The notes under the pieces are model-generated. The model saw nothing but the letters and a program-made list of their open reading frames with translations, searched no databases and was not told the origin of the DNA. A stretch of DNA of 64,000 bases, from NCBI GenBank assembly GCA_041736675.1, contig JBGSTD010000065.1:895-64894 (forward strand), written 5' to 3'. The DNA comes from Salaquimonas sp. Lineage in GTDB: Bacteria; Pseudomonadota; Alphaproteobacteria; Rhizobiales; Rhizobiaceae. Position 1 is the stretch's first letter; every line of letters begins with the position of its first letter. Position numbers and translations under genes: made by a program. This document shows, piece by piece, positions 14,544 through 48,481 of the stretch.

Positions 14544-14646
14544 ATGCCCGACATTGACCTGTCGTCCCTAGAACAACGATTTTGCTTGTGATTTCCGATA
14601 AGTGCTGAAATGTTTTGTTTGTCAGCCCAATGCGGAGCGTCGTTTC

Positions 14647-18314: not shown

Positions 18315-19325
18315 CTACTGTCGTTCCTGCAGGGGCGACTTGCCATACATTTCCCGGTAGCATTTGGAAAAGTGCGAGGCTGACACAAATCCGCAGGCGA
18401 TTGCCACGTCCACAACCGGTATTGTAGATTGGCGCAGCAAATGGCGGGCTCGATCGAGCCGAACCTCGAGATAATAACGGGCAGGTGAGCGGCCCATCTG
18501 GCTTTGGAACAGTCGCTCAATCTGCCGCCTTGACAGACCGACGTAAGAGGCAATCTCCACCAACGACAGGGGTTCGGAAATATTGGCCTCCATAAACTCG
18601 ATGATCGAGATCACCTTTGTGTTCTGGACACCCAGACGTGCCCGCAGAGGCAGGCGTTGGCGGTCATGCGGGTTGCGCACCCTGTCGGTCAGGGCCTGCT
18701 CACAGACCTTGTTGACGAGGTCTTCATCGTTATCGCGTCCAATCAGCGAAAGCATCATGTCAAGGGCGGCTGTTCCTCCAGCGCAAGTCCAGATATTGCC
18801 GTCCATTTCATAGAGATCGGCATATACATCTGCTGTTGGAAACTTCTCCTGAAATCCAGGCAGGTTCTCCCAGTGAATAGCGCAGCGCTTGCCCTTTAAA
18901 AGCCCGGCTGCGGCAAGCAGATGAGCCGCCGTGCACAATCCACCCACAGTAACACCGGAATTCTTGCATTCGCGCAAATAGGCAAAAAGAGATTTGTGCT
19001 CGGCATCTTCAACGCGGATACCGGAGCAGGCAAACATGATGGTTGGCCGCCTTGAACTGCTTAGATTGTGGCGTTCCTGATCAAGGCTCGCATTGACGAT
19101 AACTTCAACGCCATTTGAAGCGGCAACCGGTTTGCCGTCCATTGAGGCAAGCCGCCAAGTATACATTTCCTGACCCAGCATTCGGTTGGCGAGACGCAGG
19201 GGTTCAATTGCCGTTGTAAAGGCAATCATCGAGAAATTTGGCACAAGGAAAAACACAATGGATTTGGTCACAATCGGTTTGCCTGAAAGTGGCTTGCCAA
19301 CTTCCTTTACGACTTCAATACCCAT
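18315..19325 (-). CDS. GlxA-family AraC-type transcriptional regulator (second GbdR/CdhR-like paralog)
   Basis: 336 aa, with a DJ-1/PfpI-like N-domain and an AraC HTH (SPARYYLEVRLDRARHLL...GFVSASHFSKCYREMYG). Confidence 0.85.
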   Translation of the reverse strand: MGIEVVKEVGKPLSGKPIVTKSIVFFLVPNFSMIAFTTAIEPLRLANRMLGQEMYTWRLASMDGKPVAASNGVEVIVNASLDQERHNLSSSRRPTIMFACSGIRVEDAEHKSLFAYLRECKNSGVTVGGLCTAAHLLAAAGLLKGKRCAIHWENLPGFQEKFPTADVYADLYEMDGNIWTCAGGTAALDMMLSLIGRDNDEDLVNKVCEQALTDRVRNPHDRQRLPLRARLGVQNTKVISIIEFMEANISEPLSLVEIASYVGLSRRQIERLFQSQMGRSPARYYLEVRLDRARHLLRQSTIPVVDVAIACGFVSASHFSKCYREMYGKSPLQERQ

Positions 19326-21138: not shown

Positions 21139-22029
21139 ATGAATGAAAATCACAACTCGCAATTGCCGCTACTTGACCTTGATTTGCTCAAGACACTGAT
21201 CGCCATTGCCGAAACAGGAAATTTTTCAGCCGCTGCAGAAGTGGTGTTTCGAACCCCATCGGCCGTTTCCATGCAGGTAAAGCGTATCGAGGAATTATTG
21301 GGCAGATCGGTTTTCAACCGGGACTCGCGTTCGGTAACGCTGACTTCCGATGGTGAGGAATTGCTGACTCATGCGCGCAGGATGCTCGCGATGAACCGCG
21401 AAATCATGGCCAAATTTATCACTCCTGATGTGGCGGGCATTGTGCGCATGGGCGCGCCGGATGATGCAGCCGAGCGACTGCTGCCTGATATGTTGCGCCG
21501 CTTTGCCCGGAGCCACCCATGCGTGGCGGTGGATGTGTTGGTGGAAAGTTCAACGACCCTTGTTGAAATGGTTAGAGAAAAGAAGCTGGATATGTCGATT
21601 ATCACCTGCGATGCGGCAAATACCGGGGAAATGAAGGTGGAAACGCTTATCGAGGAGCGGCTCGTTTGGGCAGGATTAAAAGGAGGAATTGCCGCTGAAC
21701 GGTTGCCATTGCCGATTTCTGTCTGGGAAGAGGGTTGTGTGTGGCGAAATGCTGGTATCAGTTCTCTTGAACAAGCTGGAATCGGCTACCGCGTGGCCTT
21801 TCAAAGCGCCAACATATCCGGACAGAAAGCCGCCATTCTGGCGGATCTGGCCGTTGCACCAATTCCGATATCAGCCTTGAATGATACAATCATTCAGGTT
21901 GGCAAAGGGAGACTGCCGCCGCTACCCAGTTATGCTCTTGGCCTTGTTGTTGCAGACGGTCTGTCCAGTCCGGCGCGGGCGGCGGTTGATCATTTGCGGG
22001 CAAGTTTCATAGCGCAAAAGGCTGCATGA
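21139..22029 (+). CDS. LysR family transcriptional regulator
   Basis: The N-terminal wHTH reads LLKTLIAIAETGNFSAAAEVVFRTPSAVSMQVKRIEELLG. At 296 aa it has the typical LysR length and co-inducer domain. Confidence 0.85.
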   Translation: MNENHNSQLPLLDLDLLKTLIAIAETGNFSAAAEVVFRTPSAVSMQVKRIEELLGRSVFNRDSRSVTLTSDGEELLTHARRMLAMNREIMAKFITPDVAGIVRMGAPDDAAERLLPDMLRRFARSHPCVAVDVLVESSTTLVEMVREKKLDMSIITCDAANTGEMKVETLIEERLVWAGLKGGIAAERLPLPISVWEEGCVWRNAGISSLEQAGIGYRVAFQSANISGQKAAILADLAVAPIPISALNDTIIQVGKGRLPPLPSYALGLVVADGLSSPARAAVDHLRASFIAQKAA

Positions 22030-22031
22030 TA

Positions 22032-23024
22032 TTATTTGCCTGCCAGTTGCTGCAGTTTTTCCCAGACGCTAGAAGCAATTTCCACTTCGTCTGACAAGAA
22101 CCGTTTCGTTCCGGGCAGGCGCGCGCCTTCCTGTTCCTCTATCGCCAGCGAGAACCGTTCAATCCGGTCCCAGAATGTATCTCCGGAATAAGTGCGCGGG
22201 TCGAGAATGAAATAGAACTGGCCAAAATCATGGGGCGGACCCTCGCGTAGTTTGAGATTGTGCGAGTCCAGGGAATTGACAGAGCCGGTTATAGCTGCCG
22301 CCAGAACTTCCGCCATCAATCCAAATCCGAAGCCCTTGTAGCCTCCGGTCGAAACCAATGATCCCTTGAGCGCCTCACCGGGATCTGTTGTCGGGTTACC
22401 CTCACAATCCACCGCCCATCCCAGTGGAATTTTGGTGCCAGCCTCTTTTGCCATGGTGATTTTACCCAGTGCAATCGTGCTTGTTGACTGGTCAAACTGA
22501 AAAGCAATGCCACCATTTCTTGCTGGAACAGCCATCGCGATCGGGTTCGTGCCCAATACGGCCTTTGTCCCGCCGGGCGGTGAGACAACGGCGGAGGCAT
22601 TGGTGAAACCGATACCGACAAATCCGGCCTCAGCGATTTGTTCGGTGAAATAACCCAGGGAGGTGCAGGTGTGTGCATGTGCTATGGCGAGCGATGCGGT
22701 TCCGTTTTGGCGGGCAGTATCCAGTGCTGACGGCAAGCCTCTGGCAAAAGCGGATTGGGCAAAACCGTATTTTGCGTCAACAAGAACGCTTCCCGGTTTG
22801 GGTTTGGAGACAACAGGTTCCACACTGCCGTCAACCCTGCCGGAATCAAGTTGGAGACAATAGCTTTCGAGATAATAAAGACCGCAAATCACATTGGCTG
22901 TCGCTTCCGCCTTGCGGACGGCTTTTGCAACCTCTCGCGCAATCCACGGTTTCGCGCCATGGGCAACGAGTGCCTGATTTGTTTTTGTTTCAATTACATC
23001 GAGAGAAATCTTTATCCTGTTCAT
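22032..23024 (-). CDS. Ldh2-family (malate/L-lactate dehydrogenase type 2) oxidoreductase
   Basis: 330 aa from ATG 23024, with a GGGAG SD. It has family-typical segments (LAIAHAHTCTSLGYF, GTNPIAMAVPA, GGYKGFGFGLMAEVLAAAITGS). It is the last gene of the minus-strand corrinoid operon. Confidence 0.7.
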   Translation of the reverse strand: MNRIKISLDVIETKTNQALVAHGAKPWIAREVAKAVRKAEATANVICGLYYLESYCLQLDSGRVDGSVEPVVSKPKPGSVLVDAKYGFAQSAFARGLPSALDTARQNGTASLAIAHAHTCTSLGYFTEQIAEAGFVGIGFTNASAVVSPPGGTKAVLGTNPIAMAVPARNGGIAFQFDQSTSTIALGKITMAKEAGTKIPLGWAVDCEGNPTTDPGEALKGSLVSTGGYKGFGFGLMAEVLAAAITGSVNSLDSHNLKLREGPPHDFGQFYFILDPRTYSGDTFWDRIERFSLAIEEQEGARLPGTKRFLSDEVEIASSVWEKLQQLAGK

Positions 23025-23052
23025 TGATCGCTCCCGATGTGTTTCAGTTGTG

Positions 23053-25098
23053 TCAACCCCGGCGGGCACGGCCACCGCGACGGCGCGGGGAGCCATCGTC
23101 AACCTCGCCATCCGCCATCAGTTGTCTTTCAGGCAGTTTAACCTGGGTTGCCAGTTTTGGGAATGGTTCGGCTTTGTTGGGGAGCGCCATTGCATTGACA
23201 AAATGGCGCTGGAAATCCGGTTCAAGAGCCGTTTCGATTTTTTCGATTCTTGTAACTGTAACTTCAATTTCGCGACGATAATCGCGGTTGAGAAGCGCCA
23301 TCTTAGCGCCATAGCCTGCGGCATTGCCCACGGCCTTGACGTGGTCCAGATCGCAGTCGGGAATAAGCCCGAGAACCATCGCATATTTGGGGTCTATGAA
23401 AGTTCCAAAGGCTCCGGCAAAGCTGATGCTGTCAACCTCGGTGATGCCCATCTTGTCCATCAGCAATTTTATGCCTGCATAAAGGGCTGCCTTTGCAAGC
23501 TGGATGGCGCGTACATCGGTTTGGCGGATGATGAGTTCCTGCTGGCCGCGCCAGAGGACATAGGAGAAGGTTCGCCCTTCCTGAATGATCCTGTCGGAAC
23601 GCCCGGACAGTTTACCGTCAATAACGCCGTCTTCGGAAATAATGCCGCAAAGAAACATTTCCGCGACAACCTCGATGATTGCGGAGCCGCAAACCCCTGT
23701 TACGCCAATAGCCGAAACAGAGTCTGCAAACCCTTCCTCGTCTGACCACAGTGTGCTGCCAATAACCCTTACTTTTGGTTCCAGGGTGACGGGGTCTATG
23801 CGGACGCGTTCGATTGCTCCAGGCGCTGCGCGCTGTCCACAGGATATTTCAGCGCCTTCGAAGGCAGGGCCTGTTGGGGAGGATGCTGCCACTACATGGT
23901 TGCGGTTGCCTAGCACTATCTCGGCATTGGTGCCGACGTCCACCACCAGCATCTGCTTGTCCTGGCGGTGCGGTCCCTCGCTCAAGGTTACTGCCGCCGC
24001 ATCCGCACCGACATGGCCGGCAATACAGGGCAGCATATAGACCCTTGCGCCATCATTGGCTATAAGGTCCAGCGATTTGGCAGTGGTGTTGACACGGCCC
24101 GATACGGCCAGCGCAAAGGGAGCGCCGCCCAGTTCAGTCGGGTCAATGCCGAGAAAAAGATGATGCATGATCGGATTGCCTACGAACACCATGTCAAGGA
24201 TATCGTGGCGGTCGACCTTGGTCTCTTCACACACATTGCCAATCAATGTGTTAAGCGCCTCGCGCACGGCAATTGTCATGCCTTCGCGGCCTTCGGGGTT
24301 CATCATCACGTAGGACACGCGGCTCATCAAATCTTCGCCAAAACGGATTTGCGGATTGGATGTGCCGGACGATGCGATGGTGAGGCCTGATAGAAGCGAG
24401 ACGAGATGCAGGGCAATGGTTGTTGACCCTATATCGCAGGCAATGCCATATGCTTCGTTTTTCAGGCCGGGATAGACAGCGATAACTCGCGGGCGCGCAG
24501 CATCTTCATCATGATGGATCGCAACTGTGACCTTCCAGTTACCGGCACGAAGCACTTTCTGGATGGTCGGAAGAATGTCGAAATCGACCTCGATGTTTTT
24601 GCAACCCCAATCAGCTTCGAGGGCATGCATCATCCGGTCAAAGTCGCCGAGCGGCTTGTGCATGTCAGGCTCTTCAACTTCGACATAACACATGTGGATT
24701 GCCGGACGGCGGTCGATATGGCGGCCATCGTCGACCTTGCGAACGACCTGCGCGTTGATCTGCAGGTCCTGCGGAATGTCAATAACAAGATCACCCTCAA
24801 TATAGGATGAGCAGGAAAGACGCCGTCCGCCTTTTAGTTCGCGTTTCTCAGCGTAACGGATTTCCTTGGGGCCAAGGGGCGAGATGTGGTCATTGGAGGA
24901 GGTAATGCCATGCTTGGCAAATTTGCCTTCCTGAACATCACACTGGCAGCGGCCGCATATTCCACGCCCGCCGCAAACCGACTCGACATAGACCCCAAGT
25001 TCGCGCGCCGCATCTATGACGGCCGTGCCTTTTGCAAAGCGGCCACGCTTTCCGGACGGCATGAAGAGGACGAGGGGGTCTTTTGGTTTGTCGAGCAT
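23053..25098 (-). CDS. corrinoid reductive activase (RamA/RACo-like: N-terminal 2Fe-2S ferredoxin domain plus ASKHA/DUF4445 ATPase)
   Basis: 681 aa. The 2Fe-2S motif is CGGRGICGRCQC. The ASKHA segments are GIACDIGSTTIALHL and VVDVGTNAEIVLG. The Arg-rich C-terminus reads SPRRRGGRARRG. Confidence 0.8.
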   Translation of the reverse strand: MLDKPKDPLVLFMPSGKRGRFAKGTAVIDAARELGVYVESVCGGRGICGRCQCDVQEGKFAKHGITSSNDHISPLGPKEIRYAEKRELKGGRRLSCSSYIEGDLVIDIPQDLQINAQVVRKVDDGRHIDRRPAIHMCYVEVEEPDMHKPLGDFDRMMHALEADWGCKNIEVDFDILPTIQKVLRAGNWKVTVAIHHDEDAARPRVIAVYPGLKNEAYGIACDIGSTTIALHLVSLLSGLTIASSGTSNPQIRFGEDLMSRVSYVMMNPEGREGMTIAVREALNTLIGNVCEETKVDRHDILDMVFVGNPIMHHLFLGIDPTELGGAPFALAVSGRVNTTAKSLDLIANDGARVYMLPCIAGHVGADAAAVTLSEGPHRQDKQMLVVDVGTNAEIVLGNRNHVVAASSPTGPAFEGAEISCGQRAAPGAIERVRIDPVTLEPKVRVIGSTLWSDEEGFADSVSAIGVTGVCGSAIIEVVAEMFLCGIISEDGVIDGKLSGRSDRIIQEGRTFSYVLWRGQQELIIRQTDVRAIQLAKAALYAGIKLLMDKMGITEVDSISFAGAFGTFIDPKYAMVLGLIPDCDLDHVKAVGNAAGYGAKMALLNRDYRREIEVTVTRIEKIETALEPDFQRHFVNAMALPNKAEPFPKLATQVKLPERQLMADGEVDDGSPRRRGGRARRG

Positions 25099-25122
25099 TT
25101 TTGCTTTCTTCAGGTTAGCTGA

Positions 25123-26208
25123 TTAACCCCGGGCGCGACCGACACGGCCGCTCGCGGCACGTCGTCCGCGGGCGCCGCCGAGTGCAGCATCAGGGTCACG
25201 GTTGAAGGCGATCCAGGCAGCACCGCCGTCATCCTGGTTAAGCAGGAAGTTTGCCGCGCGAATGGATTCCATCTCCTTGCCCGGGCGGGGTCTTGTCGAG
25301 CCCAGTCCAAACAGTTTGACGAATGTTTCATCGTCCATATCCAGGGGAACCACAATACCTGCCGCTTCAACAGCCGCTCTTTTTTCAGCAATCTTTGATG
25401 CGCCCACAGGCAGGGCAACCGGGTTCATGATTGCGCTTGTCATGCCGGCCGCATAGGCCATCGGCAAAAACGCATTGTTGATGCCGTGACGGTTTGGCAA
25501 TCCGAAAGAGATATTGGATGCGCCGCAGGTTGTGTTGACACCCAGTTCTTCACGAAGACGGCGAACCAGCGTGAACACCTGGTGACCGGCTGTGGCCATG
25601 GCGCCGATTGGCATGACCAGCGGATCAACCACGATGTCATGTGCCGGAATGCCGAAATCGGCGGCACGCTGGACGATCTTCTTGGCAACAGCAAAGCGTA
25701 CTTCAGGATCTTCCGAGATGCCGCTGTCATCATTGGAAATTGCTACAACCGCAACATTGTATTTCTTGATGAGCGGCAGAACGCGTTCGAGGCGCTCTTC
25801 TTCTCCAGTCACGGAGTTGACGAGCGGGCGGCCTTTTGCGGTTCTCAAACCTGCTTCAAGCGCACCGGGAACAGAAGAGTCGATGCATAGCGGACAATCT
25901 GTAACCGCCTGGACAGTCTCAATCAGTTTCGGCATGAGCATGGGCTCGACAAAGTTGTTGTCGGCATAACGTGGATCAGCTGCCATCTTGCCGGAAAATA
26001 CCGCTCCAGAATTGATATCGAGAATGGTGGCACCTGCCTCGACCTGGGCAATCGCATCTGCTTCGACGCGCGAGAAGTCATCACGCTCGAGTTCCTCGTT
26101 CAAAATTTTGCGGCCAGTCGGGTTGATGCGCTCACCGATAACGCAAAAAGGCTGGTCAAAACCGATGATAACTTCTTTGGTTTGGGACGCTACGAGGGTA
26201 TGTGTCAT
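25123..26208 (-). CDS. methyltetrahydrofolate:corrinoid methyltransferase (pterin-binding, MtrH/AcsE/MtgA-like)
   Basis: From ATG 26208 (GGAG SD) the pterin-binding barrel motifs are VIGERINPTGRK, ILDINSG and CGASNISFGLPNR. The Arg/Gly-rich C-terminus reads GGARGRRAASGRVGRARG. Confidence 0.8.
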   Translation of the reverse strand: MTHTLVASQTKEVIIGFDQPFCVIGERINPTGRKILNEELERDDFSRVEADAIAQVEAGATILDINSGAVFSGKMAADPRYADNNFVEPMLMPKLIETVQAVTDCPLCIDSSVPGALEAGLRTAKGRPLVNSVTGEEERLERVLPLIKKYNVAVVAISNDDSGISEDPEVRFAVAKKIVQRAADFGIPAHDIVVDPLVMPIGAMATAGHQVFTLVRRLREELGVNTTCGASNISFGLPNRHGINNAFLPMAYAAGMTSAIMNPVALPVGASKIAEKRAAVEAAGIVVPLDMDDETFVKLFGLGSTRPRPGKEMESIRAANFLLNQDDGGAAWIAFNRDPDAALGGARGRRAASGRVGRARG

Positions 26209-26223
26209 TCTGGTTCTCCAATG

Positions 26224-26243
26224 ATATAAAGAGTTCTTTATAT
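26224..26243. promoter_or_regulatory. 20-bp AT-rich palindrome ATATAAAGAGTTCTTTATAT (candidate operator), copy 1
   Basis: It has 9-bp inverted arms with a 2-nt spacer and lies 15 nt upstream of the methyl-THF methyltransferase ATG. It matches the copy at 34683-34702 at 19 of 20 positions. A tandem CTTTATAT repeat follows. Confidence 0.6.
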
Positions 26244-26276
26244 CTTTATATGATCTGTTACAAGCTTTGATCGCAA

Positions 26277-27359
26277 TCAATGTGTGATCTTGTCGACAAT
26301 CTGCTGCGGGGTTTGTGGTTTTGCATCGCCGCTCTCAATGCGATCCTGGATCATCGCCGCATCCACCGCTGCCTCGCGTTTCCACGGCTTGCGGCCTCTT
26401 AGTACGCCAGATTCTGCAACGATTTCAGCAACATATTCTTCCTGTCGGTAGGCCATGATATGGACGCCGTGAACGCCTTCGATTTCCTTGACCTCGTTCA
26501 TGATGTCGATGCAAAGCTGTTTTCCTTCGGCTTTCTGGTCTTGCGCGCCTTCAAGACGTTCTATGATCGCATCGGGAATATGAATGCCGGGAACATTTGA
26601 GCGGATCCATTTGGCGGTTTTGGCAGAGGCGAGGGGGCCGACACCGCAAAGAATAAAGCACTCCTTGTCGAGGCCGAGATCGCGCACTTTCTTCATGTAC
26701 TCACGGAACATGGGCACATCAAAGCAATATTGGCTTTGAACAAATTGCGCACCGGCGGCGATTTTCTTGGCAAGTCGTTGCGGGCGAAAATCATATGGCG
26801 GCGCAAAAGGGTTGATTGCTGCGCCGAGGAACAGGTGTGGCGGTGTCGTCAGTTTGCGCCCGGAGAGAAACTTTGATTCATCGCGCATGGTGCGGATGGT
26901 TTCTAGAAGCGACATGCAGTCAAGGTCAAATACCGGCTTAGCTCCTGGCTGATCCCCTGCCTGCACGCCATCGCCGGTCAGACACAGGACATTTTGCACG
27001 CCCATGGCTGAGGCGCCCAACACATCGCCCTGAATTGCAATGCGGTTTTTATCGCGGCAGGAAATCTGCAGAATTGGCGCATAGCCCATGCGGGTCAGCA
27101 GGGCGCAAATGCCGGTTGAAGACATATGGCAATTGGCACCTGACGCATCAACAGCATTGATACCGTCCACCCAGCCGTCGAAAATTGCCGCGCGTTCGTA
27201 AACATCGAGCGGGTTGGCGCTGTCAGGCGGGTTGAGTTCGGTTGTTACGGCAAATTCACCACGACGCAACACGCGTTCCAGCCTGCCCCGGGAAGAGTGA
27301 CCGGGCAGAGGGTCTAGCGGAGCACCAGGATCAAGGGGGTTAAGGTCCATCTGGCTCAC
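26277..27359 (-). CDS. metF: methylenetetrahydrofolate reductase (MetF, MetFV type)
   Basis: 360 aa. The MTHFR barrel motifs are FAVTTELNPP, INAVDASGANCHMSS and LCLTGDG. The start overlaps the MetV stop by 4 nt (ATGA). Confidence 0.85.
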   Translation of the reverse strand: MSQMDLNPLDPGAPLDPLPGHSSRGRLERVLRRGEFAVTTELNPPDSANPLDVYERAAIFDGWVDGINAVDASGANCHMSSTGICALLTRMGYAPILQISCRDKNRIAIQGDVLGASAMGVQNVLCLTGDGVQAGDQPGAKPVFDLDCMSLLETIRTMRDESKFLSGRKLTTPPHLFLGAAINPFAPPYDFRPQRLAKKIAAGAQFVQSQYCFDVPMFREYMKKVRDLGLDKECFILCGVGPLASAKTAKWIRSNVPGIHIPDAIIERLEGAQDQKAEGKQLCIDIMNEVKEIEGVHGVHIMAYRQEEYVAEIVAESGVLRGRKPWKREAAVDAAMIQDRIESGDAKPQTPQQIVDKITH

Positions 27360-27952
27360 TGGTTTGTCTCCATGTTTGCAGCTTTGGCAGCTTCACGCGT
27401 CGCTGCTGCCTGCGCTGTTACCCGCAACCAGGAGGAAGTTTCCCGCAAAGACTGATCGACAGGCTTTTGAACGTTGAAAATGGCCGTGTTGTCGCGCATT
27501 TGCTGCGAGCCTTTCCAGGCCTGAACCCAGACACACGGCATATCAGGTTCGACTTCGCAGTTTCCATTGGCGCGCACACCGCCGCAAGGGCCATTGCGAA
27601 GCTGCTTGGGGCAATTCATCGGGCAGGACATGCCGGTGGATGACAGTGCGCACTGGCCGCACATGCGGCAGTCAAACATCAGGCCTTTGACGTGTTTTTC
27701 GAGAAAGGTTACCGGTCCTTCGGCCCTGTGATAGCCCACCATTTTCCAAATTGGGTCAAGCATCAGAAAGGCATCGGCAAACTTCTTGTAGAACCATTCG
27801 AGGAACCTTGAATGACGAACCGACCACAGGCGGATCGAATAGCTGCGCTGGCGGCGGTTTGCGCTGACACCAGCGGGCTTGAATGCCGTTTTGGGTGCAG
27901 CCTTTTTGACCAGCGTCGCCTGGGTCACTTTTGCATTCGGTTCAGAGCTCAT
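27356..27952 (-). CDS. methylenetetrahydrofolate reductase C-terminal domain-containing protein (MetV-like, Cys-rich)
   Basis: The Cys-rich run is CRMCGQCALSSTGMSCPMNCPKQLRNGPCGGVRANGNCEVEPDMPCVW. It is translationally coupled to metF. Confidence 0.75.
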   Translation of the reverse strand: MSSEPNAKVTQATLVKKAAPKTAFKPAGVSANRRQRSYSIRLWSVRHSRFLEWFYKKFADAFLMLDPIWKMVGYHRAEGPVTFLEKHVKGLMFDCRMCGQCALSSTGMSCPMNCPKQLRNGPCGGVRANGNCEVEPDMPCVWVQAWKGSQQMRDNTAIFNVQKPVDQSLRETSSWLRVTAQAAATREAAKAANMETNQ

Positions 27953-27985
27953 CGCTTTTCCAGTTCCAGCGTTGATGCTTGTGCA

Positions 27986-28288
27986 TCAGGTTTCACGGCC
28001 TTCGGTTTTGATCAGAGCAATCAATCGCTCCCTCGTATATTCATTTTCAAGATCGGCAGCGGCTTTCTCGGCTTCCGCTTCGAGGTCATCGCTGACCTCG
28101 ACAGGTTCCGATTTACGCCATTGGGCGAGATACTCGTCTGTTTCGGCGGCACCTGAGCGCATTGCACACATGTCGATTGCCTCAATAAAGCGCAGCGACA
28201 ACTCACGCTTGGCCAGATTGCGCCTGCCTGCCTTGACAGTCAGGGAAGCAGGAATATCCCGCCAGTAAACGATTTGCAGCTGTGCCAT
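27986..28288 (-). CDS. small acidic protein, probably of the 'virulence factor' domain family often annotated next to metF/metV in alphaproteobacteria
   Basis: 100 aa from ATG 28288 (GAGG SD): MAQLQIVYWRDIPASLTVKAGRR...DDLEAEAEKAAADLENEY. The family assignment is from memory only. Confidence 0.4.
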   Translation of the reverse strand: MAQLQIVYWRDIPASLTVKAGRRNLAKRELSLRFIEAIDMCAMRSGAAETDEYLAQWRKSEPVEVSDDLEAEAEKAAADLENEYTRERLIALIKTEGRET

Positions 28289-28414
28289 AAACGACCTCTC
28301 GAATTTCGGCTGACAATGTTGGAAAGCCTTGGTTTTTGCTGCGCCGCTAACGACGCACACAGGAATAAAAACGACTCCGGTTTTTGGTGAAGCAAGACTG
28401 GCAGTCTGATGCCC

Positions 28415-28906
28415 TTATGCGGGGTATTTCAACAGTCCGACACTTTCAAAAGTCATCACCAATTCATTGTCCTGGTTTTTCCCCGATTGGCGGGCAGTCA
28501 ACACATACCAGCCGGGTTTGCTTTGGCTCGCACGGCAACTGATTGTCTCATTGAAATAAGTTATGGTGTCACCGGTAAAAACTGGTTTCAGCCATTTCAA
28601 ATTGGTGAACCCCGGCGATGGGCCAAATTCTGGTATTGGCAGACCCGTTGCAGCGCGTTCTGCCATGGATTTTGCATGATGATCGCGCTGTTTTCGCATC
28701 CATACCGAGACGGTATGCCAGCCGGAAGCTGAAAGCCGCCCGAAGACACTGGCCTTTGCCGCGTTTTCATCCAGATGAAACGGCTGAGGATCAAACGCGC
28801 TGGCAAAACGGATGGTTTCTTCTGCTTCAAAAGTGTGGCAGCCTATTTCTGCTTTTGTGCCGGGCACCATGAAGCAAGGCAGTTGCGGATCAATTGCTGC
28901 GTTCAT
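28415..28906 (-). CDS. MaoC-like (hot-dog fold) dehydratase family protein, copy 2
   Basis: Motif: FASAFDPQPFHLDENAAKASVFGRLSASGWHT. The ATG overlaps the stop of copy 1 (ATGA). Confidence 0.7.
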   Translation of the reverse strand: MNAAIDPQLPCFMVPGTKAEIGCHTFEAEETIRFASAFDPQPFHLDENAAKASVFGRLSASGWHTVSVWMRKQRDHHAKSMAERAATGLPIPEFGPSPGFTNLKWLKPVFTGDTITYFNETISCRASQSKPGWYVLTARQSGKNQDNELVMTFESVGLLKYPA

Positions 28907-29358
28907 GCGGCACCCCTCGTTTTCATCATGCCTGTATTGGTCAGGGTCAAAACCTGATCGCCGTTTTGATTGAAGACATTGCAACGGATATTAAGAAGAC
29001 CCAAACTTGGGCGTGAGGCGGAAAGGCGTGCGCCTTCGACCAATATATGACCGCTAAGGATGTCGCCAGGGCGAACAGGGATCATCCATTTGCATTCGTG
29101 AACGCCAGGAGCACCCTGGGATGACGAATTCAGCAGAAAACTGTCGCACATCATACGCATTGCAATTGAACATGTGTGCCAGCCGGAGGCGCAAAGCCCA
29201 CCCATCACCGAGGCTTTTCCGCCTTCTTCGCTCAAATGAAACGGTGCCGGATCAAACTCTTCAGCAAAAGCGATGATTTCTTCGCTGGTGACCTGGTATG
29301 GGCCAATATCGACTTTTGAACCGGGTTGCAGATCCTCGTAGTAATATTTGATCATCAA
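28903..29358 (-). CDS. MaoC-like (hot-dog fold) dehydratase family protein, copy 1
   Basis: Motif: FAEEFDPAPFHLSEEGGKASVMGGLCASGWHT. 151 aa. Confidence 0.7.
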   Translation of the reverse strand: MMIKYYYEDLQPGSKVDIGPYQVTSEEIIAFAEEFDPAPFHLSEEGGKASVMGGLCASGWHTCSIAMRMMCDSFLLNSSSQGAPGVHECKWMIPVRPGDILSGHILVEGARLSASRPSLGLLNIRCNVFNQNGDQVLTLTNTGMMKTRGAA

Positions 29359-29388
29359 GTACTCGCATGCAAGATTGGTGCTGTAAGA

Positions 29389-30030
29389 TCATAAACGGGC
29401 AAGGGCAGGGGTTAAATCGCCAAAACCTGTATATCTGCGTTCATAGACAAGGCCAAGAAAAGCAGCTGCGGCTTCTGCGTTTTTACTCAGTTCGTCGTCA
29501 TCGGTCTGGGCAAGATACAGCGCTTTGGTATAATTGGAGAAATACATTTCCTTCAGTTCAGGGTGACGGTCTAGACCAAGCGGTTTCACCATGAAGGTTT
29601 CAAAATGGCGCGCAAGGAAATCGGTGATGAAAAAGGTTGTCATATGATCGTCGCCCTCGCCGGCGAATGCCTCGTTACCGACGTAAAATGAAAAGCAGTG
29701 GGGTCCGGCAATCCGCTCTATGCCATATTTAACGCATACCTTGTCGAGGGCGCCGCCTGTACCACAATCTGCGTAGCCGGCAAAAATGTGGGTGAAACCT
29801 TCATCCCGTGCCTGGCAGATGGCTATCTCCATTGCAGGTGCGATTTTTTCCGGATGATGATGATAGTCTGCCGGAAGACATTTCAGATCAATGTGGTCGA
29901 GACCAAGCTGCTCATTGATTGCGAGGATTTCCCTTGCAATCATGCCGCAGGCAATAACGCGGACGGGTTCGCGATCCGAACACTCGTCCGAGGTTGGCAA
30001 TATAGATCCGGGTTTGTTCCTGCTGGTCAA
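29389..30030 (-). CDS. DUF1638 domain-containing protein
   Basis: Sequence: VRVIACGMIAREI...LPADYHHHPEKI...GYADCGTGGALD...GPHCFSFY. From memory, this family is typically found beside corrinoid methyltransferase genes. Confidence 0.6.
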   Translation of the reverse strand: MTSRNKPGSILPTSDECSDREPVRVIACGMIAREILAINEQLGLDHIDLKCLPADYHHHPEKIAPAMEIAICQARDEGFTHIFAGYADCGTGGALDKVCVKYGIERIAGPHCFSFYVGNEAFAGEGDDHMTTFFITDFLARHFETFMVKPLGLDRHPELKEMYFSNYTKALYLAQTDDDELSKNAEAAAAFLGLVYERRYTGFGDLTPALARL

Positions 30031-30102
30031 GATGCTCTCGCAGATAGATTCAATTGCTTGTGAAACTGAATCTGATTATTTCACCAAATAATTGTTTTAC
30101 CA

Positions 30103-30138
30103 AATAAAAAGGGCGCTGATTGGTTCCCCCCAGCGCCC
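30103..30138 (-). terminator. rho-independent terminator after the corrinoid protein gene
   Basis: On the minus strand, GGGCGCTG-(12 nt)-CAGCGCCC is followed by TTTTTATTT, 25 nt after the stop at 30164. Confidence 0.7.
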
Positions 30139-30163
30139 GATTTCAATCCCGTCCACCTGACGC

Positions 30164-30853
30164 TTACATCTGGTTGTGCTTGCGGGCCATATAGGATTTT
30201 GCAGTTTCAACTGCAACCGCAGCATCCCGGCAATAGGCGTCAGCACCGATGGCCTTGCCAAATTCCTCGTTGAGCGGAGCGCCGCCCACAAGGATGGTAT
30301 AGTCATCGCGAATGCCTTTGGCGATCATCGTGTCTATCACAACCTTCATGTATGGCATTGTTGTGGTCAACAAGGCTGACATACCCAGAATGTCGGGTTT
30401 ATGTTTTTCGAGAGCGGCCAGATATTCGTCAGCATCGGTGTTGATGCCAAGGTCGAACACATCAAAACCGGCGCCTTCCATCATCATGCCGACGAGGTTC
30501 TTGCCAATGTCATGAATGTCACCTTTGACGGTGCCGATAACCATTGAGCCCAATTTGGGTGCACCGGTTTCAATCAGCAACGGGCGAAGAATGAACATTC
30601 CTGCTTTCATTGCATTTGCCGCAAGCAAAACTTCGGGAACGAACAAAATGCCGTCACGGAAGTCGATACCGACAATGCGCATGCCTTCAACCAGGGCCTT
30701 GGTCAGAACATCGTAAGGTGTCCATTTCCTGTCGAGCAGGATGTGTACACCTTCTTCGATTTCTTCTTTCAGGCCGTCATAAAGGTCATCATGCATCTGG
30801 AGAACCAGATCCTCATCGCTCAATTCTGACAGGATGATTTCATCTTCTGACAT
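30164..30853 (-). CDS. corrinoid (cobalamin-binding) methyl-carrier protein (MtgC/MtbC-like)
   Basis: It has a B12 cap domain and a Rossmann domain with the DxHxxG motif (GDIHDIGKN). The strongly acidic N-terminus reads MSEDEIILSELSDEDLVLQMHDD. Confidence 0.85.
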   Translation of the reverse strand: MSEDEIILSELSDEDLVLQMHDDLYDGLKEEIEEGVHILLDRKWTPYDVLTKALVEGMRIVGIDFRDGILFVPEVLLAANAMKAGMFILRPLLIETGAPKLGSMVIGTVKGDIHDIGKNLVGMMMEGAGFDVFDLGINTDADEYLAALEKHKPDILGMSALLTTTMPYMKVVIDTMIAKGIRDDYTILVGGAPLNEEFGKAIGADAYCRDAAVAVETAKSYMARKHNQM

Positions 30854-30919
30854 TTATTGCTGCCCTTCTGCAAAACGTGAATGTGTTTCCAATTTAGTTA
30901 TCATTGCCAATACGCAAAT

Positions 30920-30973
30920 CAAACAAATTTTCCCCTTGATATAGCAGGAAACCCCCCATTGATATCTGTTTGT
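30920..30973. promoter_or_regulatory. composite repeat element in the corrinoid/mttB divergent promoter region
   Basis: CAAACAAAT (30920) and its inverted partner ATCTGTTTG (30965-30973) flank two direct CCCC(T/A)TTGATAT repeats. The left part resembles 34757-34783, and the right 15 nt is identical to 42633-42647. Confidence 0.45.
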
Positions 30974-31238
30974 TTAGCGACCTATGGCAAGAGGATTGCG
31001 ACGCGTTGATTTTGGATGCAATGTCGACAAAGAATGTGGTCTATGTAATTCACGCAAAAGCTTGTCGGTTTTGGCAAAGTGAAATTGCAAAACAGATATA
31101 GTTGAAGAGGTAATCGTTCTTGTAGTCTTCGAAATTTGACGGAGTTGTCCGATTTTGGGACGGCACTATCCAATATTTGAAACCAAGATACTGTTATTTC
31201 AGGCGAATTTGAGTTCGTCATGCTAAAAGGTAAGAAAA

Positions 31239-32822
31239 ATGAGCGAGATGGATACCTCCATGAGTGAGAAAGATGCTGGCGAAGAAGGACGCGGCGGACG
31301 CCGTGTCAGAGGCGGCGGTGGTGCTGCCAGACGCGCGTCGCGTTCAGGAGTGCATTTGACAAGCCTGCCTTATATCCACCGACAGTTGGAACCCGTTGAT
31401 ATCCTCTCGTTGGAAGCGATCGAAATTATTGAGCGCAATGCCGATATTCTGATGGAAGAAGTCGGTCTTGAATATCGTGATGATGCCGAGGCGCTGCAGA
31501 TGTGGCGTGATGCCGGTGCGGATGTTCAGGGTGAGCGGGTGCATTTTCCAAAAGGTCTTTGCCGCGAGTTGATGAAAACTGCCCCGTCGAGCTTTACCCA
31601 GCATGCGCGAAATCCTGACAGAAGCGTGGTTATTGGCGGCAAAACAACGGTTTTTGCTCCGGTTTATGGTCCGCCATTTGTACACGACCTCGATGGCAAC
31701 CGCCGGTATGGCACGATGGAGGATTTCCGCAATTTCGTGAAACTTGCCTATATGGCCCCCGCCATGCACCATTCAGGCGGCACGGTTTGCGAGCCAACGG
31801 ATGTTGCGGTCAACAAGCGCCATCTCGACATGGTTTATTCACACATCCGCTATTCAGACAAACCTTTCATGGGTTCAGTCACTGCGCCCGAACGGGCGGA
31901 AGATACTGTCAAAATGGCGCAAATGGTGTTTGGAGAAGAGTTTGTTGACCAGAATTGCGTTCTTGTCTCATTGATCAACTGCAACTCGCCGATGGTGCTT
32001 GATGATACCATGCTTGGTGCATTGAAAGTCTATGCCCGGGCAAACCAGGCGTCCATCATCTCCCCGTTTATCGTTGGCGGTGCCATGAGCCCGGTCACTG
32101 TGGCTGGAACATTGACGCAGGTGCTTTGTGAAGCAACGTCAGCAATCGCGTTTTCGCAGCTATGTCGCAAGGGATCGCCGGTGATTTTCGGCACATTTGC
32201 GACCTCGATTTCCATGCAGACGGGTGCGCCCGCGTTTGGAACACCTGAGCCTGCGCAGGTTTTGATGGGGGCTGCACAGTTTGCCCGCCGATATAACCTG
32301 CCGTTCCGCTCCGGTGGCTCACTTACCGGATCAAAACTGCCGGACGCATCGGCAGCCTATGAAAGCGCCAACACGCTTTGGCCGGCGATGATGGGAGGGG
32401 TGAATTTCATGCTTCACGCTGCCGGATGGCTTGAAGGGGGGCTTGTGTCCTCCTTCGAAAAATTCGTGATGGATTGCGACCAGTTGGCGGCAGCCCAGAA
32501 ATTTGCTGCAGGTGTCAATGTCGATGAAAATGCCCAGGCTATGTCAGCTATCCGCGAAGTCGGACCGGGCGGCCATTATCTTGGATGTGAGCATACCCAG
32601 AACAATTTCAAAACCGCATTCCACGTTTCCACCGTTGCAGACAACAACTCGTTTGAGCAATGGGAAATTGAAGGCGGATTACGCTCGGAGCAGCGGGCAA
32701 ACAAAACTGCACGTGAATGGTTGGAGGCATACGTCGCGCCGGATCTTGACCCTGCAATTGATGAGGCGCTCAAGGCCTTTATCAAGCAGCGCAAGGATTC
32801 CATGCCCGACGCATTTGCCTGA
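31239..32822 (+). CDS. MttB-superfamily (trimethylamine methyltransferase family) protein without pyrrolysine; candidate quaternary-amine:corrinoid methyltransferase 1
   Basis: The 527-aa ORF is uninterrupted, with no in-frame TAG. It has an MttB-like TIM barrel (e.g. NCNSPMVLD, GAMSPVTVAG, HAAGWLEGGL). The Arg/Gly-rich N-terminus reads GRGGRRVRGGGGAARRASRSG. Confidence 0.8.
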   Translation: MSEMDTSMSEKDAGEEGRGGRRVRGGGGAARRASRSGVHLTSLPYIHRQLEPVDILSLEAIEIIERNADILMEEVGLEYRDDAEALQMWRDAGADVQGERVHFPKGLCRELMKTAPSSFTQHARNPDRSVVIGGKTTVFAPVYGPPFVHDLDGNRRYGTMEDFRNFVKLAYMAPAMHHSGGTVCEPTDVAVNKRHLDMVYSHIRYSDKPFMGSVTAPERAEDTVKMAQMVFGEEFVDQNCVLVSLINCNSPMVLDDTMLGALKVYARANQASIISPFIVGGAMSPVTVAGTLTQVLCEATSAIAFSQLCRKGSPVIFGTFATSISMQTGAPAFGTPEPAQVLMGAAQFARRYNLPFRSGGSLTGSKLPDASAAYESANTLWPAMMGGVNFMLHAAGWLEGGLVSSFEKFVMDCDQLAAAQKFAAGVNVDENAQAMSAIREVGPGGHYLGCEHTQNNFKTAFHVSTVADNNSFEQWEIEGGLRSEQRANKTAREWLEAYVAPDLDPAIDEALKAFIKQRKDSMPDAFA

Positions 32823-32966
32823 AAGGGTGCCCCGGTTTCCGAAGCGCAAGCGAGGAAACAAGTCGGGAATCAAATTACGAAAAGTGTCTGGCGGCTTAGC
32901 GAGCCGACCGGGACTTCGTCATGATTTTGTGATGCAAGGCACCTGACTGTCGGTGGGGTAAAGATC

Positions 32967-33635
32967 ATGACTGACTGCACGGATATTGAAAAGAAATTGG
33001 CTCCTGCGCTTGAGGCGCTGGGGCTTTTTTGTTTTGGCTGGTTTGTAATGGCGGATGATCCGTTTGCCGGACGCAGGGCTGTACTTGTCGGCAACCATGC
33101 CCAGGAAGGCAAACACGCGATGTGGGAGGCTTTTAGGAAATCCGCAGAATATTCCGACACAAAACCTGATGCGATGGATCGCTGGACGCAGCGCGTTGTT
33201 GGTGCGGTAGCAAAGGTGCAGGGGGCCACAGCGATTTACCCGTTTGGAAATACACTATGGCCGTTTCAACGTTATGCCAAGTCTGCAACGGGAATGCAGT
33301 CATCGCCTCTCGGCCTGCTGATCCATCCTGAATTTGGACTATGGCAAGCGTACCGGTCCGTGTTGATATTCAACGATTCTTTGGGTTTAAGTATTCCTCA
33401 GGCGTTGAATCATCCTTGTGACACGTGTTTTGAGAAACCTTGCCTAAGTGCTTGTCCTGTAGAGGCTTTTTCAGTTGATGATTTTGCTGTTGAGCAATGT
33501 CGCACGCATCTTGCTTCCGGGGATCAGCCCGCTTGCATGAGCCTGGGATGCCGGGCGCGGGCTGCCTGTCCAGTCGGAATTCCTTATGTTGACGAGCAAA
33601 TCCGGTTTCACATGCGATCGTTCGCGAAGCTTTAG
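32967..33635 (+). CDS. Fe-S cluster protein with QueG/reductive-dehalogenase-like C-terminal ferredoxin motifs
   Basis: Motifs: CDTCFEKPCLSACP and CMSLGCRARAACP. 222 aa. Its 3' end overlaps the convergent homocysteine methyltransferase gene by 4 nt. Confidence 0.5.
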   Translation: MTDCTDIEKKLAPALEALGLFCFGWFVMADDPFAGRRAVLVGNHAQEGKHAMWEAFRKSAEYSDTKPDAMDRWTQRVVGAVAKVQGATAIYPFGNTLWPFQRYAKSATGMQSSPLGLLIHPEFGLWQAYRSVLIFNDSLGLSIPQALNHPCDTCFEKPCLSACPVEAFSVDDFAVEQCRTHLASGDQPACMSLGCRARAACPVGIPYVDEQIRFHMRSFAKL

Positions 33636-34666
33636 CGTTGACGACGGCCTTTGCGTTCGCGTGGGGCCTGGGCATCGTTGGCGGCAGAGGTTGCGTTTTT
33701 TAATGGTCCGATCTTTGCGATGATTTGATCGATGCTAGGACGCTCGATGTTTTCGTCAGAGATATGGTCGTCGATTGCCTTGCGCATATAGACAAGATGG
33801 TCGCAGGAAGTGCCACAACAGCCGCCAATGATTTTTGCACCGGCATCCATTGCCATGATGGTATAATCATACATCAATTCGGGTGTGCCGGTATATTCCA
33901 CCTTGTCGCCCCGAACGACCGGTATGCCGCAGTTTGCCTTTGCAACCACTATTGCTTCAGGATCTTTTTCGGTCATATCGAGAACGGAAGACAGCAAATC
34001 AGAAGCGCCCACGCCGCAGTTTGCACCAACAGCAAAAGGCTTGGCCTGATTGTCTGCGAAGACCGACCAAAGGCTGGAAGGGGCAAGGCCCATCATGGTC
34101 TTTCCGGCCGTATCGAATGAGGCAGTGACAACATAGGGCATATCAAGTTCGATGGCGGCGTTGGCTGCGGCCTCGATTTCGTCCTGGGAAGACATGGTTT
34201 CAATCCAGATGACATCAACGCCGCCGGATTTGAGCCCTTCCATCTGTTCCTTGAAGGCAAATTGCGCTTCTTCCTTGGTCAGCGGTCCAAGAGGCATCAA
34301 AAGCTCGCCTGTGGGGCCAACCGAGCCTGCCACAATCATTTTACGGCCTGACGCATCGGCGACTCTGCGCGCAATCTGCGCGCCTTTTTCATTGAGTTCA
34401 AAAACACGATCCTGAGCATGATGGAGTTTCAGTCTGTGGCGTGTTCCGCCAAATGTGTTGGTCAGAATAATGTCAGACCCGGCATCGACAAAACCCTGGT
34501 GCAGTTGTTCGATGTTTTCCGGCTTGGTATCATTCCAGAATTCCGGAGAATCGCCAGAAGTAAGCCCCATGCCGAACAAGGTCGTGCCCGTCGCACCATC
34601 AGCGAGCAGTATTTTCTTTTCAGCTAACAATTCCGCAAGGGCATTCTGCATTTTCGGTCCGTTCAT
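33632..34666 (-). CDS. homocysteine S-methyltransferase-family protein (betaine-homocysteine methyltransferase-like / MetH Hcy-domain-like)
   Basis: Motifs: LLADGATGT, ILTNTFGG, GANCGVG and GGCCGTSCDH (zinc ligands). The basic C-terminus reads PRERKGRRQR. Confidence 0.8.
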   Translation of the reverse strand: MNGPKMQNALAELLAEKKILLADGATGTTLFGMGLTSGDSPEFWNDTKPENIEQLHQGFVDAGSDIILTNTFGGTRHRLKLHHAQDRVFELNEKGAQIARRVADASGRKMIVAGSVGPTGELLMPLGPLTKEEAQFAFKEQMEGLKSGGVDVIWIETMSSQDEIEAAANAAIELDMPYVVTASFDTAGKTMMGLAPSSLWSVFADNQAKPFAVGANCGVGASDLLSSVLDMTEKDPEAIVVAKANCGIPVVRGDKVEYTGTPELMYDYTIMAMDAGAKIIGGCCGTSCDHLVYMRKAIDDHISDENIERPSIDQIIAKIGPLKNATSAANDAQAPRERKGRRQR

Positions 34667-43171: not shown

Positions 43172-44134
43172 TTAATGGCCGCTTGCAGTCGACTGCTTGC
43201 GGCCTTTTGGTGTCCGCCAGCGCTTGTGAAGCCACAGCCACTGATCGGGATACTCCCTGATCCATCCCTCCATCACATCATTGACCATGATGGTCAGTCG
43301 TTCGACATCCACTCTTCCGTCCGGAAGATAGGGCAGGTCAAGCTTGTCCTGCAATTCGATGCGAAACCGTCCGTTTGGCAATCGGACTGTGCGTGCCGGG
43401 TATACCGGACAGTTGTAATTGCGGGCAAGTTTGGCAAGCAGGGGATTTGCAATCGTCTTGCGGCCGAAAAACTCAACTTCCGGGCCTTTATTGAAATACT
43501 GGTCAGCGAGAACACCAACTTTGCCGCCATTATCCATGACCGCGGACAAGGCCCATGATGCGCCAGCTTTGGAGGGCACCAGATGCCCCATGTTGGTCTT
43601 GCGTGCTTTGAGAACCTCACGTGCCAGAAAGCGGTTGTTTGGCGGACGAAACAGAGCGGTGATATTGAGACCAAAGGCAGCCGCGCCAACCGGCAAAACT
43701 TCCCAGTTCCCCGTGTGGGCGGTGAAACAGATCGCAGGACCCTGATGATCACGCAGCTCCTCAAAATTCCTTGTGCCAAGAATTTCAAACCGGCCGTTTT
43801 CCGGGTTTTCAAGATCTATGTTGAAAATTTTGTCCAGAAAGGCGTATTCGGCTGCAGTCCGCCCGAGATTTTCCCAGACACCGTGCAGGATTTTCTCGAT
43901 TTCTGCAGCACTTTTTTCCGGAAATGCCAGTTGAAGATTTTCACGCGCAAGCTTAGTGCGCGGATGCAACATGCCAATCCTTCGCGTAATCCATGCCGTT
44001 GAGTTGATCGCCGCGTCGGCAGGCAAAAGCTTGATTGCTGCGAGAAACGTCAACAGCCATCTGGCCAAGGTCCAATCTCTGGCATCGCGCAGCCAAACAT
44101 ACCATTTAGGGTATTTGCTCAGTTTTGCAGCCAA
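43172..44134 (-). CDS. lpxXL: lipid A very-long-chain fatty acid acyltransferase (LpxL/HtrB family)
   Basis: It has the lysophospholipid acyltransferase motif HTGNWE and is the last gene of the acpXL cluster. Confidence 0.75.
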   Translation of the reverse strand: MAAKLSKYPKWYVWLRDARDWTLARWLLTFLAAIKLLPADAAINSTAWITRRIGMLHPRTKLARENLQLAFPEKSAAEIEKILHGVWENLGRTAAEYAFLDKIFNIDLENPENGRFEILGTRNFEELRDHQGPAICFTAHTGNWEVLPVGAAAFGLNITALFRPPNNRFLAREVLKARKTNMGHLVPSKAGASWALSAVMDNGGKVGVLADQYFNKGPEVEFFGRKTIANPLLAKLARNYNCPVYPARTVRLPNGRFRIELQDKLDLPYLPDGRVDVERLTIMVNDVMEGWIREYPDQWLWLHKRWRTPKGRKQSTASGH

Positions 44135-44170
44135 TGTCTCATCCGGATATTTGCGGCAATGCCATTGACC

Positions 44171-45256: not shown

Positions 45257-45289
45257 ACGAATGCCGACTATGTGCGGTAAGGCACTTCG

Positions 45290-46567: not shown

Positions 46568-46584
46568 GAAGGGACCTCTTTTGA

Positions 46585-48416: not shown

Positions 48417-48481
48417 TATCTTCTCCAATTCCAAAAAGGCGCGACTTCACGGGGTCGTGCCTTTCGTGTTCTTCCGTAAAT

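Follow-up and report, generated by a model that had tools for sequence, protein, structure and literature searches.

A compact mtg locus from Salaquimonas, probably a glycine betaine demethylase combined with a split methionine synthase

What does a complete corrinoid-dependent methyl-transfer set do in the genome of an aerobic, Hyphomicrobiales-type bacterium? The question is raised by a 12.6-kb locus in a 64,000-nucleotide stretch of Salaquimonas sp. DNA (assembly GCA_041736675.1, contig JBGSTD010000065.1, positions 895 to 64,894; the whole stretch is referred to here as the window). An original prediction, made from the sequence alone, had seen in this locus an oxygen-independent, cobalamin-dependent way of moving methyl groups into the tetrahydrofolate (THF) pool, built from enzymes characterised in strict anaerobes and running parallel to an oxidative route. 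Our analysis makes it likely that the locus encodes an MtgBCD/MtgE system, that is, a glycine betaine demethylase combined with a split methionine synthase. This system was described in aerobic marine and rhizobial bacteria between 2018 and 2025; the locus is therefore a further example of it and not a new pathway.

Gene content, precedents and proposed mechanism

We based our gene calls on a Pfam profile search of the window proteins. All of the genes originally predicted, namely those for the MttB-superfamily methyltransferase, the corrinoid protein, the pterin methyltransferase, the activase, MetF and MetV, DUF1638 and the homocysteine methyltransferase, were identified at or close to the predicted positions and with the expected motifs, so that all eight functional classes of a full corrinoid-dependent methyl-transfer set are indeed present in this aerobic Hyphomicrobiales-type genome. 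The locus is laid out as follows:

22032-23111, minus strand: Ldh_2 gene (Pfam)
23053-25098, minus strand: RamA/RACo-like ATP-dependent reductive activase (Pfam Fer2 plus RACo linker, middle and ASKHA/C-terminal domains)
25123-26280, minus strand: MtgD, pterin-binding methyl-THF:corrinoid methyltransferase of the bidirectional MetH/MeTr type (PF00809)
26277-27359, minus strand: MetF2-type methylene-THF reductase (PF02219, MTHFR)
27356-27952, minus strand: MetV-like, Cys-rich partner of MetF (PF12225)
27986-28288, minus strand: PF13769 ('virulence factor') protein of 100 residues
28415-29358, minus strand: two MaoC-like hot-dog genes (PF01575)
29389-30030, minus strand: DUF1638 protein (PF07796)
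30164-30853, minus strand: MtgC, corrinoid (cobalamin-binding) protein (PF02607, B12 cap, and PF02310, B12-binding)
30854-31238, no strand: divergent intergenic region between mtgC and mttB-1, 385 bp, with presumed promoters (read from the sequence)
31239-32822, plus strand: MttB-1, MtgB-type non-pyrrolysine methyltransferase of the MttB superfamily (PF06253, 752 bits)
32967-33635, plus strand: conserved gene for a 222-residue protein (no Pfam family above threshold)
33632-34666, minus strand: MtgE, homocysteine S-methyltransferase module, the 'Bmt/Bhmt' of Sinorhizobium meliloti (PF02574, S-methyl_trans)
21139-22029, plus strand: LysR-family regulator, recurring downstream of RamA in related loci (Pfam)

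Although the original prediction associated these enzymes with strict anaerobes, genetic work in two aerobes has characterised the same set. In Phaeobacter inhibens, methionine is made by a three-part B12-dependent synthase comprising PF02574, PF00809 and B12-cap/B12-binding proteins, which also needs a ferredoxin plus DUF4445 RamA-like protein and a DUF1638 protein (Price 2018, PMC5764234). In Ruegeria pomeroyi, methionine synthesis and growth on glycine betaine both depend on MtgC and MtgD, and N-osmolytes raise the levels of the PF06253 proteins MtgB1/2, RamA, DUF1638 and the MetF2 encoded beside mtgD, the last being the most induced protein of all (Mausz 2025, PNAS, PMC12478193). The same study found MtgBCDE and reactivation genes co-localised in S. 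meliloti, where 'Bhmt' was re-read as MtgE (PMC12478193). The mtgB1 gene of P. inhibens is a highly expressed, glycine-betaine-induced paralogue needed for B12-dependent growth on glycine betaine, and an mtgB1 gbcAB double mutant does not grow on this compound (Hammer 2025, bioRxiv 10.64898/2025.12.19.695462). Knock-outs of mtgC and mtgD in relatives are methionine auxotrophs that do not use glycine betaine.

Gene content, motifs, homology and conserved synteny were observed in the window directly, and from these we infer that its proteins would act as functional orthologues in the source organism. MttB-1, a predicted TIM barrel, would demethylate a quaternary amine, most probably glycine betaine, transfer the methyl group to Co(I)-cobalamin on MtgC and release dimethylglycine; MtgD would then hand the methyl group from MtgC to THF. 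The complete set for delivery into the THF pool is present, as originally predicted, and the delivery itself is proposed from the relatives. MetF2 and its MetV-like partner would presumably work in the oxidative direction, turning methyl-THF into methylene-THF for one-carbon oxidation or assimilation. In reverse, MtgD would reload MtgC from methyl-THF and MtgE would methylate homocysteine; because MtgD is of a reversible type and MtgE is present, the same core is predicted to act as a split methionine synthase, with MtgC and MtgD probably common to betaine demethylation and methionine synthesis. This putative synthase of MtgE, MtgD and MtgC had gone unrecognised in the original prediction. The RamA/RACo-like 2Fe-2S ATPase, together with DUF1638, would restore Co(I) after its oxidation to Co(II). 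Dimethylglycine would pass to THF-linked flavoenzymes of the DMGDH/SARDH type encoded elsewhere in the window, which would remove the remaining methyl groups. The published model thus places the module upstream of the oxidative dimethylglycine/sarcosine route, with glycine betaine converted to the dimethylglycine that feeds the dehydrogenases, and not parallel to it as had been proposed.

Comparison of the individual proteins sets MtgC and MtgD apart from the anaerobe types. MtgC carries the DxHxxG motif (DIHDIG, residues 112-117) and is 81-89% identical to homologues in more than 600 species, those of Rhizobiaceae and Paracoccaceae included; against the Paracoccaceae/Roseobacter copies from loci arranged as MtgE-MtgC-DUF1638, identity is 81-85%, in line with the ~80% listed for Stappia (Hyphomicrobiales) versus R. 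pomeroyi (Dataset S2, Mausz et al. 2025, PMC12478193). It remained below the cut-off of both NCBIfam models for anaerobe-type MtgC (196 versus 370 bits and 170 versus 310 bits), in keeping with the separate origin that Mausz et al. describe. MtgD exceeded the cut-off of NCBIfam PRK07535 with 389 bits; its best PDB matches were MeTr (2yci, 121 bits) and the MetH pterin domain (117 bits), and no chain named MtgA was among its PDB matches. Neither protein, then, is of the anaerobe MtgC/MtgA type found in Desulfitobacterium hafniense and Methanolobus. The activase matched RACo (3zyy) with 295 bits and has an N-terminal 2Fe-2S ferredoxin domain (Cys42/48/51/96), while the MetV-like protein has eight Cys between residues 95 and 140. 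MtgE passed the cut-off of NF005718, the NCBIfam model for the S. meliloti-type 'betaine--homocysteine S-methyltransferase', with 504 bits. Its score was 154 bits to the MetH homocysteine domain (1q7m) versus 47 bits to BHMT, and it has zinc-ligand-type residues at Cys246 and Cys283/284; by sequence, MtgE is MetH-like rather than BHMT-like.

Core and passenger genes across related loci

When one genome per species was scanned, close MtgC homologues turned up in more than 600 species. We retrieved the best 80 loci and counted neighbours in the 63 of these that have full 10-kb flanks around the corrinoid gene. DUF1638 directly follows MtgC in 60 of the 63 loci, and MttB-1 forms a divergent pair with mtgC in 50. 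MtgE is present in 48, the 222-residue gene, adjoining MttB-1, in 46, and MtgD in 45; PF13769 also occurs in 45, every time just upstream of MetV/MetF or MtgD. RamA was found in 42 loci and MetF and MetV in 36 each, while the LysR regulator lies within the flank limit in 17 and is also present in Salaquimonas pukyongi. Sinorhizobium, Mesorhizobium, Hoeflea, Rhizobium, Shinella, Nitratireductor and S. pukyongi all share one gene order: MtgE, the 222-residue gene and MttB-1, then divergently MtgC, DUF1638, a variable slot, PF13769, MetV, MetF2, MtgD and RamA, often followed by LysR. Because the same neighbours recur in the same order across the 63 loci, the clustering of the mtg genes is not due to chance. 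In the Paracoccaceae/Roseobacter loci, only MtgE-MtgC-DUF1638 stay together.

The slot between DUF1638 and PF13769 (28289-29388 in the window) varies in content, holding a formyltransferase-like gene in 32 loci, ExoD in 18 and DUF4893 in 13. The MaoC pair that fills it in the window occurs in two of the 63 loci (L002 and L003) and in S. pukyongi, and is confined to a Salaquimonas/Nitratireductor-like lineage; Ldh_2 occurs in none of the 63. The MaoC pair and Ldh_2 are therefore lineage-specific passengers and not core genes. The original prediction had listed them, together with a small acidic protein, as co-operonic genes outside the anaerobe paradigm; the small protein, that of PF13769, is conserved, and the other two do not belong to the system. 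We considered Ldh_2 as an N-methyl-amino-acid or pyrroline-carboxylate reductase that would link the locus to proline betaine, and rejected it in view of its absence from the 63 loci and of the GCS2 gene that takes its place in S. pukyongi; the MaoC pair was likewise rejected as a component of the system, given its rarity and the other genes found in the slot elsewhere.

The locus of S. pukyongi, the closest relative in culture, otherwise has the layout of the window, MaoC pair included. It also contains genes absent from the window (CP019044, our locus L081): a 225-residue gene without a Pfam family between mtgC and DUF1638 (10742-11419), and two Sulf_transp genes between mttB and mtgC (8566-9732).

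Within the window locus the minus-strand genes are closely packed, with spacings of -4 to 133 nucleotides, and metF overlaps both of its neighbours by 4 nucleotides. The start of mtgD is ambiguous: the longest open reading frame (ORF) opens with TTG at 26280, giving the 4-nucleotide overlap with the metF stop, and a start at 26208 is also possible. The PF13769 ORF extends over 27986-28360 in the Pfam listing; the real gene is probably the 100-residue ORF at 27986-28288. No cobalamin or S-adenosylmethionine riboswitch was found in an Rfam scan that included the mtgC/mttB-1 intergenic region, and promoter-like and terminator sites were no more frequent than in shuffled sequence. The G+C content of the window is ~52%, and its MtgC is 95-97% identical to Salaquimonas proteins.

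Among known systems, those of R. pomeroyi and P. inhibens share with the window a PF06253 MtgB, MtgC, a MetH-type MtgD, a PF02574 MtgE, a RamA-like activase, DUF1638 and a MetF2 beside mtgD, as well as an aerobic alphaproteobacterial host and an MtgC for which the window protein is ~80-85% identical to Rhodobacterales-type copies. Their genes are scattered, however, whereas those of the window are gathered within 12.6 kb, an arrangement also reported for S. meliloti, and include the inserted, lineage-specific MaoC pair. The S. meliloti bmt (SMc04325) region resembles the window in that the window MtgE passes the S. meliloti-type NCBIfam model and that the Sinorhizobium gene order is the same; in Sinorhizobium, however, other genes and a distance of 4-7 kb separate MtgE from MttB, while the window MtgE abuts the 222-residue gene, and the variable slot is filled with other genes. 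The anaerobic MtgB-MtgC-MtgA system of D. hafniense has the same three-component logic, and MttB-1 is 42.6% identical to its MtgB (DhMtgB), with Y97, R312 and H348 kept; the differences are the replacement of F356 by Gly, an MtgC under the NCBIfam cut-offs and a MeTr/MetH-like THF methyltransferase, and the window locus adds the MtgE arm, DUF1638, PF13769 and a CblC-like gene. Like MtpB, MtcB, MtyB and MthB of Eubacterium limosum, non-pyrrolysine members of the MttB superfamily that all deliver to a common corrinoid protein, MttB-1 keeps the carboxylate-binding Arg; E. limosum differs in being a strict anaerobe and in its corrinoid and THF methyltransferase partners.

Substrate of MttB-1 and competing readings

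The mttB-1 ORF has no internal stop and encodes Leu at the position of pyrrolysine (Pyl). Neither MttB-1 (Leu) nor MttB-2 (Ile355), a second paralogue in the window, has an in-frame UAG at the active site, and with 261 and 336 bits the two MttB proteins stay under the 525-bit cut-off of TIGR02369, the model for Pyl-dependent MttB. MttB-1 matched PDB 4yyc ('putative trimethylamine methyltransferase'), presumably an S. meliloti protein, with 843 bits over 517 residues, and D. hafniense MtgB (2qne/9yce) with 407 bits. Rfam PYLIS_3 also matched inside both non-Pyl genes, at 59175-59273 (plus strand, 47 bits, above gathering) and 32322-32421 (plus strand, 25 bits), each match starting at the Pyl-aligned codon, here Ile or Leu; we rejected these as recoding signals and read them instead as coding-sequence homology.

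The glycine betaine site of DhMtgB comprises Y97, R312, H348 and F356; activity is lost in the R312L and H348E variants, and the F356L exchange increases the Km ~800-fold (Picking et al. 2026). We mapped these positions by alignment; with the 2qne numbering offset by 16, the expected residue type was recovered at all four. MttB-1 keeps three of them, as Tyr143 (Y97), Arg357 (R312) and His393 (H348). Four residues upstream of the lost Phe stands Trp397, which is present in 59 of 60 orthologues and could take the place of F356. The carboxylate clamp and one of the aromatic residues are thus retained in the MttB-1 clade, and the second aromatic wall is probably built differently.

Glycine betaine is the best-supported candidate, and the probable substrate of MttB-1, because of the genetics in relatives, the conserved place of the gene beside mtgC and the choline/betaine context of the window described below. 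Circumstantial support comes from Mesorhizobium alhagi, in which high salt induces an mttB gene and fhs ~14-fold, along with the betaine transporter. The original prediction had left the substrate unnamed; a leading candidate can now be given, while its caution holds in so far as three of the four binding residues fall short of proof. Three observations weigh against a glycine betaine demethylase of the MtgBCD/MtgE kind: the F356 position is Gly401 in MttB-1, and Gly in 58 of 60 orthologues; no NCBIfam MtgB or MtgC equivalog was reached by the window proteins; and MetF2/MetV are missing from about one fifth of otherwise complete loci.

The first of these also speaks for the idea that the same machinery serves another substrate, with MttB-1 demethylating a compound such as proline betaine, carnitine, gamma-butyrobetaine or a derivative of choline. 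A Gly at this position across the clade implies a differently built aromatic cage, each of the four residues matters in DhMtgB, and Alphaproteobacteria have up to seven MttB paralogues of unassigned specificity (PMC12478193). We nevertheless regard another substrate as unlikely: Arg, His and Tyr are conserved, the near-invariant Trp could stand in for Phe, MttB-1 belongs to the conserved core beside mtgC in a choline/betaine context, and P. inhibens mtgB1 is induced by glycine betaine and needed for B12-dependent growth on it (bioRxiv 10.64898/2025.12.19.695462). The locus could instead be mainly a split methionine synthase of MtgC, MtgD, MtgE, RamA and DUF1638, to which MttB would be a separate or minor addition; all five split-MetH components of Price 2018 (PMC5764234) are present, MtgE is MetH-like, and it is MtgE-MtgC-DUF1638 alone that the Paracoccaceae loci hold together. 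That MttB-1 is divergently paired with mtgC in most loci and that the MetF2/MetV pair is co-operonic make this account distinctly improbable, and a purely anabolic role would be unnecessary where, as is typical of Hyphomicrobiales, classical MetH is retained (PMC12478193).

An anaerobe-style, oxygen-independent route, running parallel to the oxidative dimethylglycine/sarcosine enzymes for use at low oxygen, was the reading of the original prediction. Methyl transfer as such needs no O2, and several components have anaerobe homologues in RACo, MeTr, MetFV and DhMtgB. Relatives run the system in ordinary aerobic growth, however (PMC12478193, bioRxiv 10.64898/2025.12.19.695462, PMC5764234), and MtgC and MtgD are not of the anaerobe MtgC/MtgA types; moreover, MtgB-type enzymes act on the quaternary amine and DMGDH/SARDH-type enzymes on its tertiary and secondary products, so the steps are sequential. 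We consider such a parallel route very unlikely, and favour the MtgBCD/MtgE demethylase with its split methionine synthase.

Two conserved proteins and the wider betaine context

The 222-residue gene (32967-33635, plus strand), absent from the original prediction although conserved, encodes a protein with 341 detectable homologues, annotated as hypothetical or 'ferredoxin'. An alignment of 38 of its homologues showed eight invariant Cys in two ferredoxin-like groups and a conserved core, SPLGxLIHPxxGLW. Its AlphaFold2 (AF2) model has a pLDDT of 92, and the top 50 Foldseek matches in the PDB were exclusively to MMACHC/CblC (human and worm; E ~1e-6, TM ~0.58), QueG and RdhA, the B12-binding branch of the nitroreductase-like fold. 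A weak Pfam match to MMACHC was found in the window protein (E 0.0012, under gathering) and another, independently, in its S. pukyongi orthologue. The C-terminal motif of two groups of four Cys is reminiscent of the paired [4Fe-4S] sites in QueG and RdhA, although the protein is far smaller than either, is ~17-19% identical in sequence to MMACHC/CblC, QueG and RdhA, and differs from CblC, which has no Fe-S domain. Of three distant homologues checked, two adjoin MTTB, a corrinoid protein and S-methyl_trans, and one does not. From the modelled fold we infer a putative cobalamin-handling role, whether processing, loading or reduction.

The PF13769 protein is similarly well conserved, with a mean column identity of 86% in an alignment of its closest homologues (71-87% identity), and its AF2 model has a pLDDT of 94.5. 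It has neither a sequence match nor a fold match in the PDB (best Foldseek E 0.15), and there are no domain fusions among its top 120 homologues; the name 'virulence factor' appears to carry no functional information in the mtg context. We found no mention of either protein in the published accounts of aerobic MtgBCD that we consulted. Tentatively, and from the models, we suggest that the two may be unrecognised conserved parts of MtgBCD in Hyphomicrobiales: the 222-residue protein would be a miniature CblC/QueG-like cobalamin binder with two [4Fe-4S] clusters that reductively processes, loads or repairs the MtgC cofactor, and PF13769, with a fold unlike anything solved, would act as a partner to the MetF/MetV/MtgD arm.

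Elsewhere in the window, further genes relate to betaine and choline:

14602-17208, plus strand: DMGDH/SARDH-type flavoenzyme (Pfam DAO-FAO_M-GCV_T), likely the downstream demethylation step
51424-53910 and 54757-57279, plus strand: DMGDH-type paralogues (DAO-FAO_M-GCV_T)
18315-19325, minus strand: GbdR-like AraC/DJ-1 regulator (best match NCBIfam GbdR, 357 bits, under the 480 cut-off)
1671-2627, minus strand: second GbdR-like AraC/DJ-1 regulator (best match NCBIfam GbdR, 284 bits, under the 480 cut-off)
61190-62719, minus strand: choline sulfatase (TIGR03417, 877 bits, over the cut-off)
58112-59665, plus strand: MttB-2, second MTTB gene, 517 residues (Pfam)

The three FAD-dependent enzymes that the original prediction had placed beside the locus are borne out by the three DAO-FAO_M-GCV_T genes. 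A homologue of the GbdR-like regulator lies near the mtg locus in 5 of the 63 genomes, and the choline sulfatase could possibly feed choline-O-sulfate into choline/betaine catabolism.

MttB-2 is the last of five overlapping or abutting genes in a second methylamine-type operon (51424-59665, plus strand; regulator at 50674-51366), which encodes, in order, a DMGDH-like protein (828 residues), an S-methyl_trans-like protein (301 residues, under every NCBIfam cut-off), a second DMGDH-like protein (840 residues), a protein of the PEP-mutase/isocitrate-lyase family (279 residues) and MttB-2. Its scores to true MttB (188 bits) and MtgB (197 bits) are nearly equal. At the four glycine betaine positions it has Gly, Gly, Glu and Leu, so that none of the four residues is kept, the carboxylate-binding Arg and His included; this Arg is conserved in all characterised family members. 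If binding is as in DhMtgB, glycine betaine is an unlikely substrate of MttB-2. Orthologues with 69-88% identity are common in marine metagenomes, and their neighbourhoods, in 80 metagenome loci, showed no consistent partner beyond an occasional PEP-mutase-family gene.

Also in the window, a row of genes at 43172-48434 (minus strand) encodes a FabA-like protein, two ketoacyl synthases, a zinc-type alcohol dehydrogenase and an acyltransferase for lipid A, and resembles the cluster for very-long-chain fatty acids and lipid A of rhizobia; an unrelated contig has these genes beside its mtg locus too (L163, 10419-12681).

The studies of 2018 and 2025 make the point that this system matters for the aerobic consumption of glycine betaine, an abundant osmolyte, for cobalamin demand and for methionine synthesis. 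To these the locus adds a compact example from a Salaquimonas-like marine Hyphomicrobiales genome, and our analysis a map of core versus passenger genes in the rhizobial-type mtg locus across 63 genomes. New here are the absence, from the alphaproteobacterial MtgB clade, of one of the four residues that were found essential in the Desulfitobacterium enzyme, and the absence of all four from MttB-2, a widespread marine paralogue. The CblC/QueG-like Fe-S protein of 222 residues and PF13769 are testable as cofactor-handling components; if the proposal is true, the former would be an adaptation allowing Co(I) chemistry in cells that respire oxygen.

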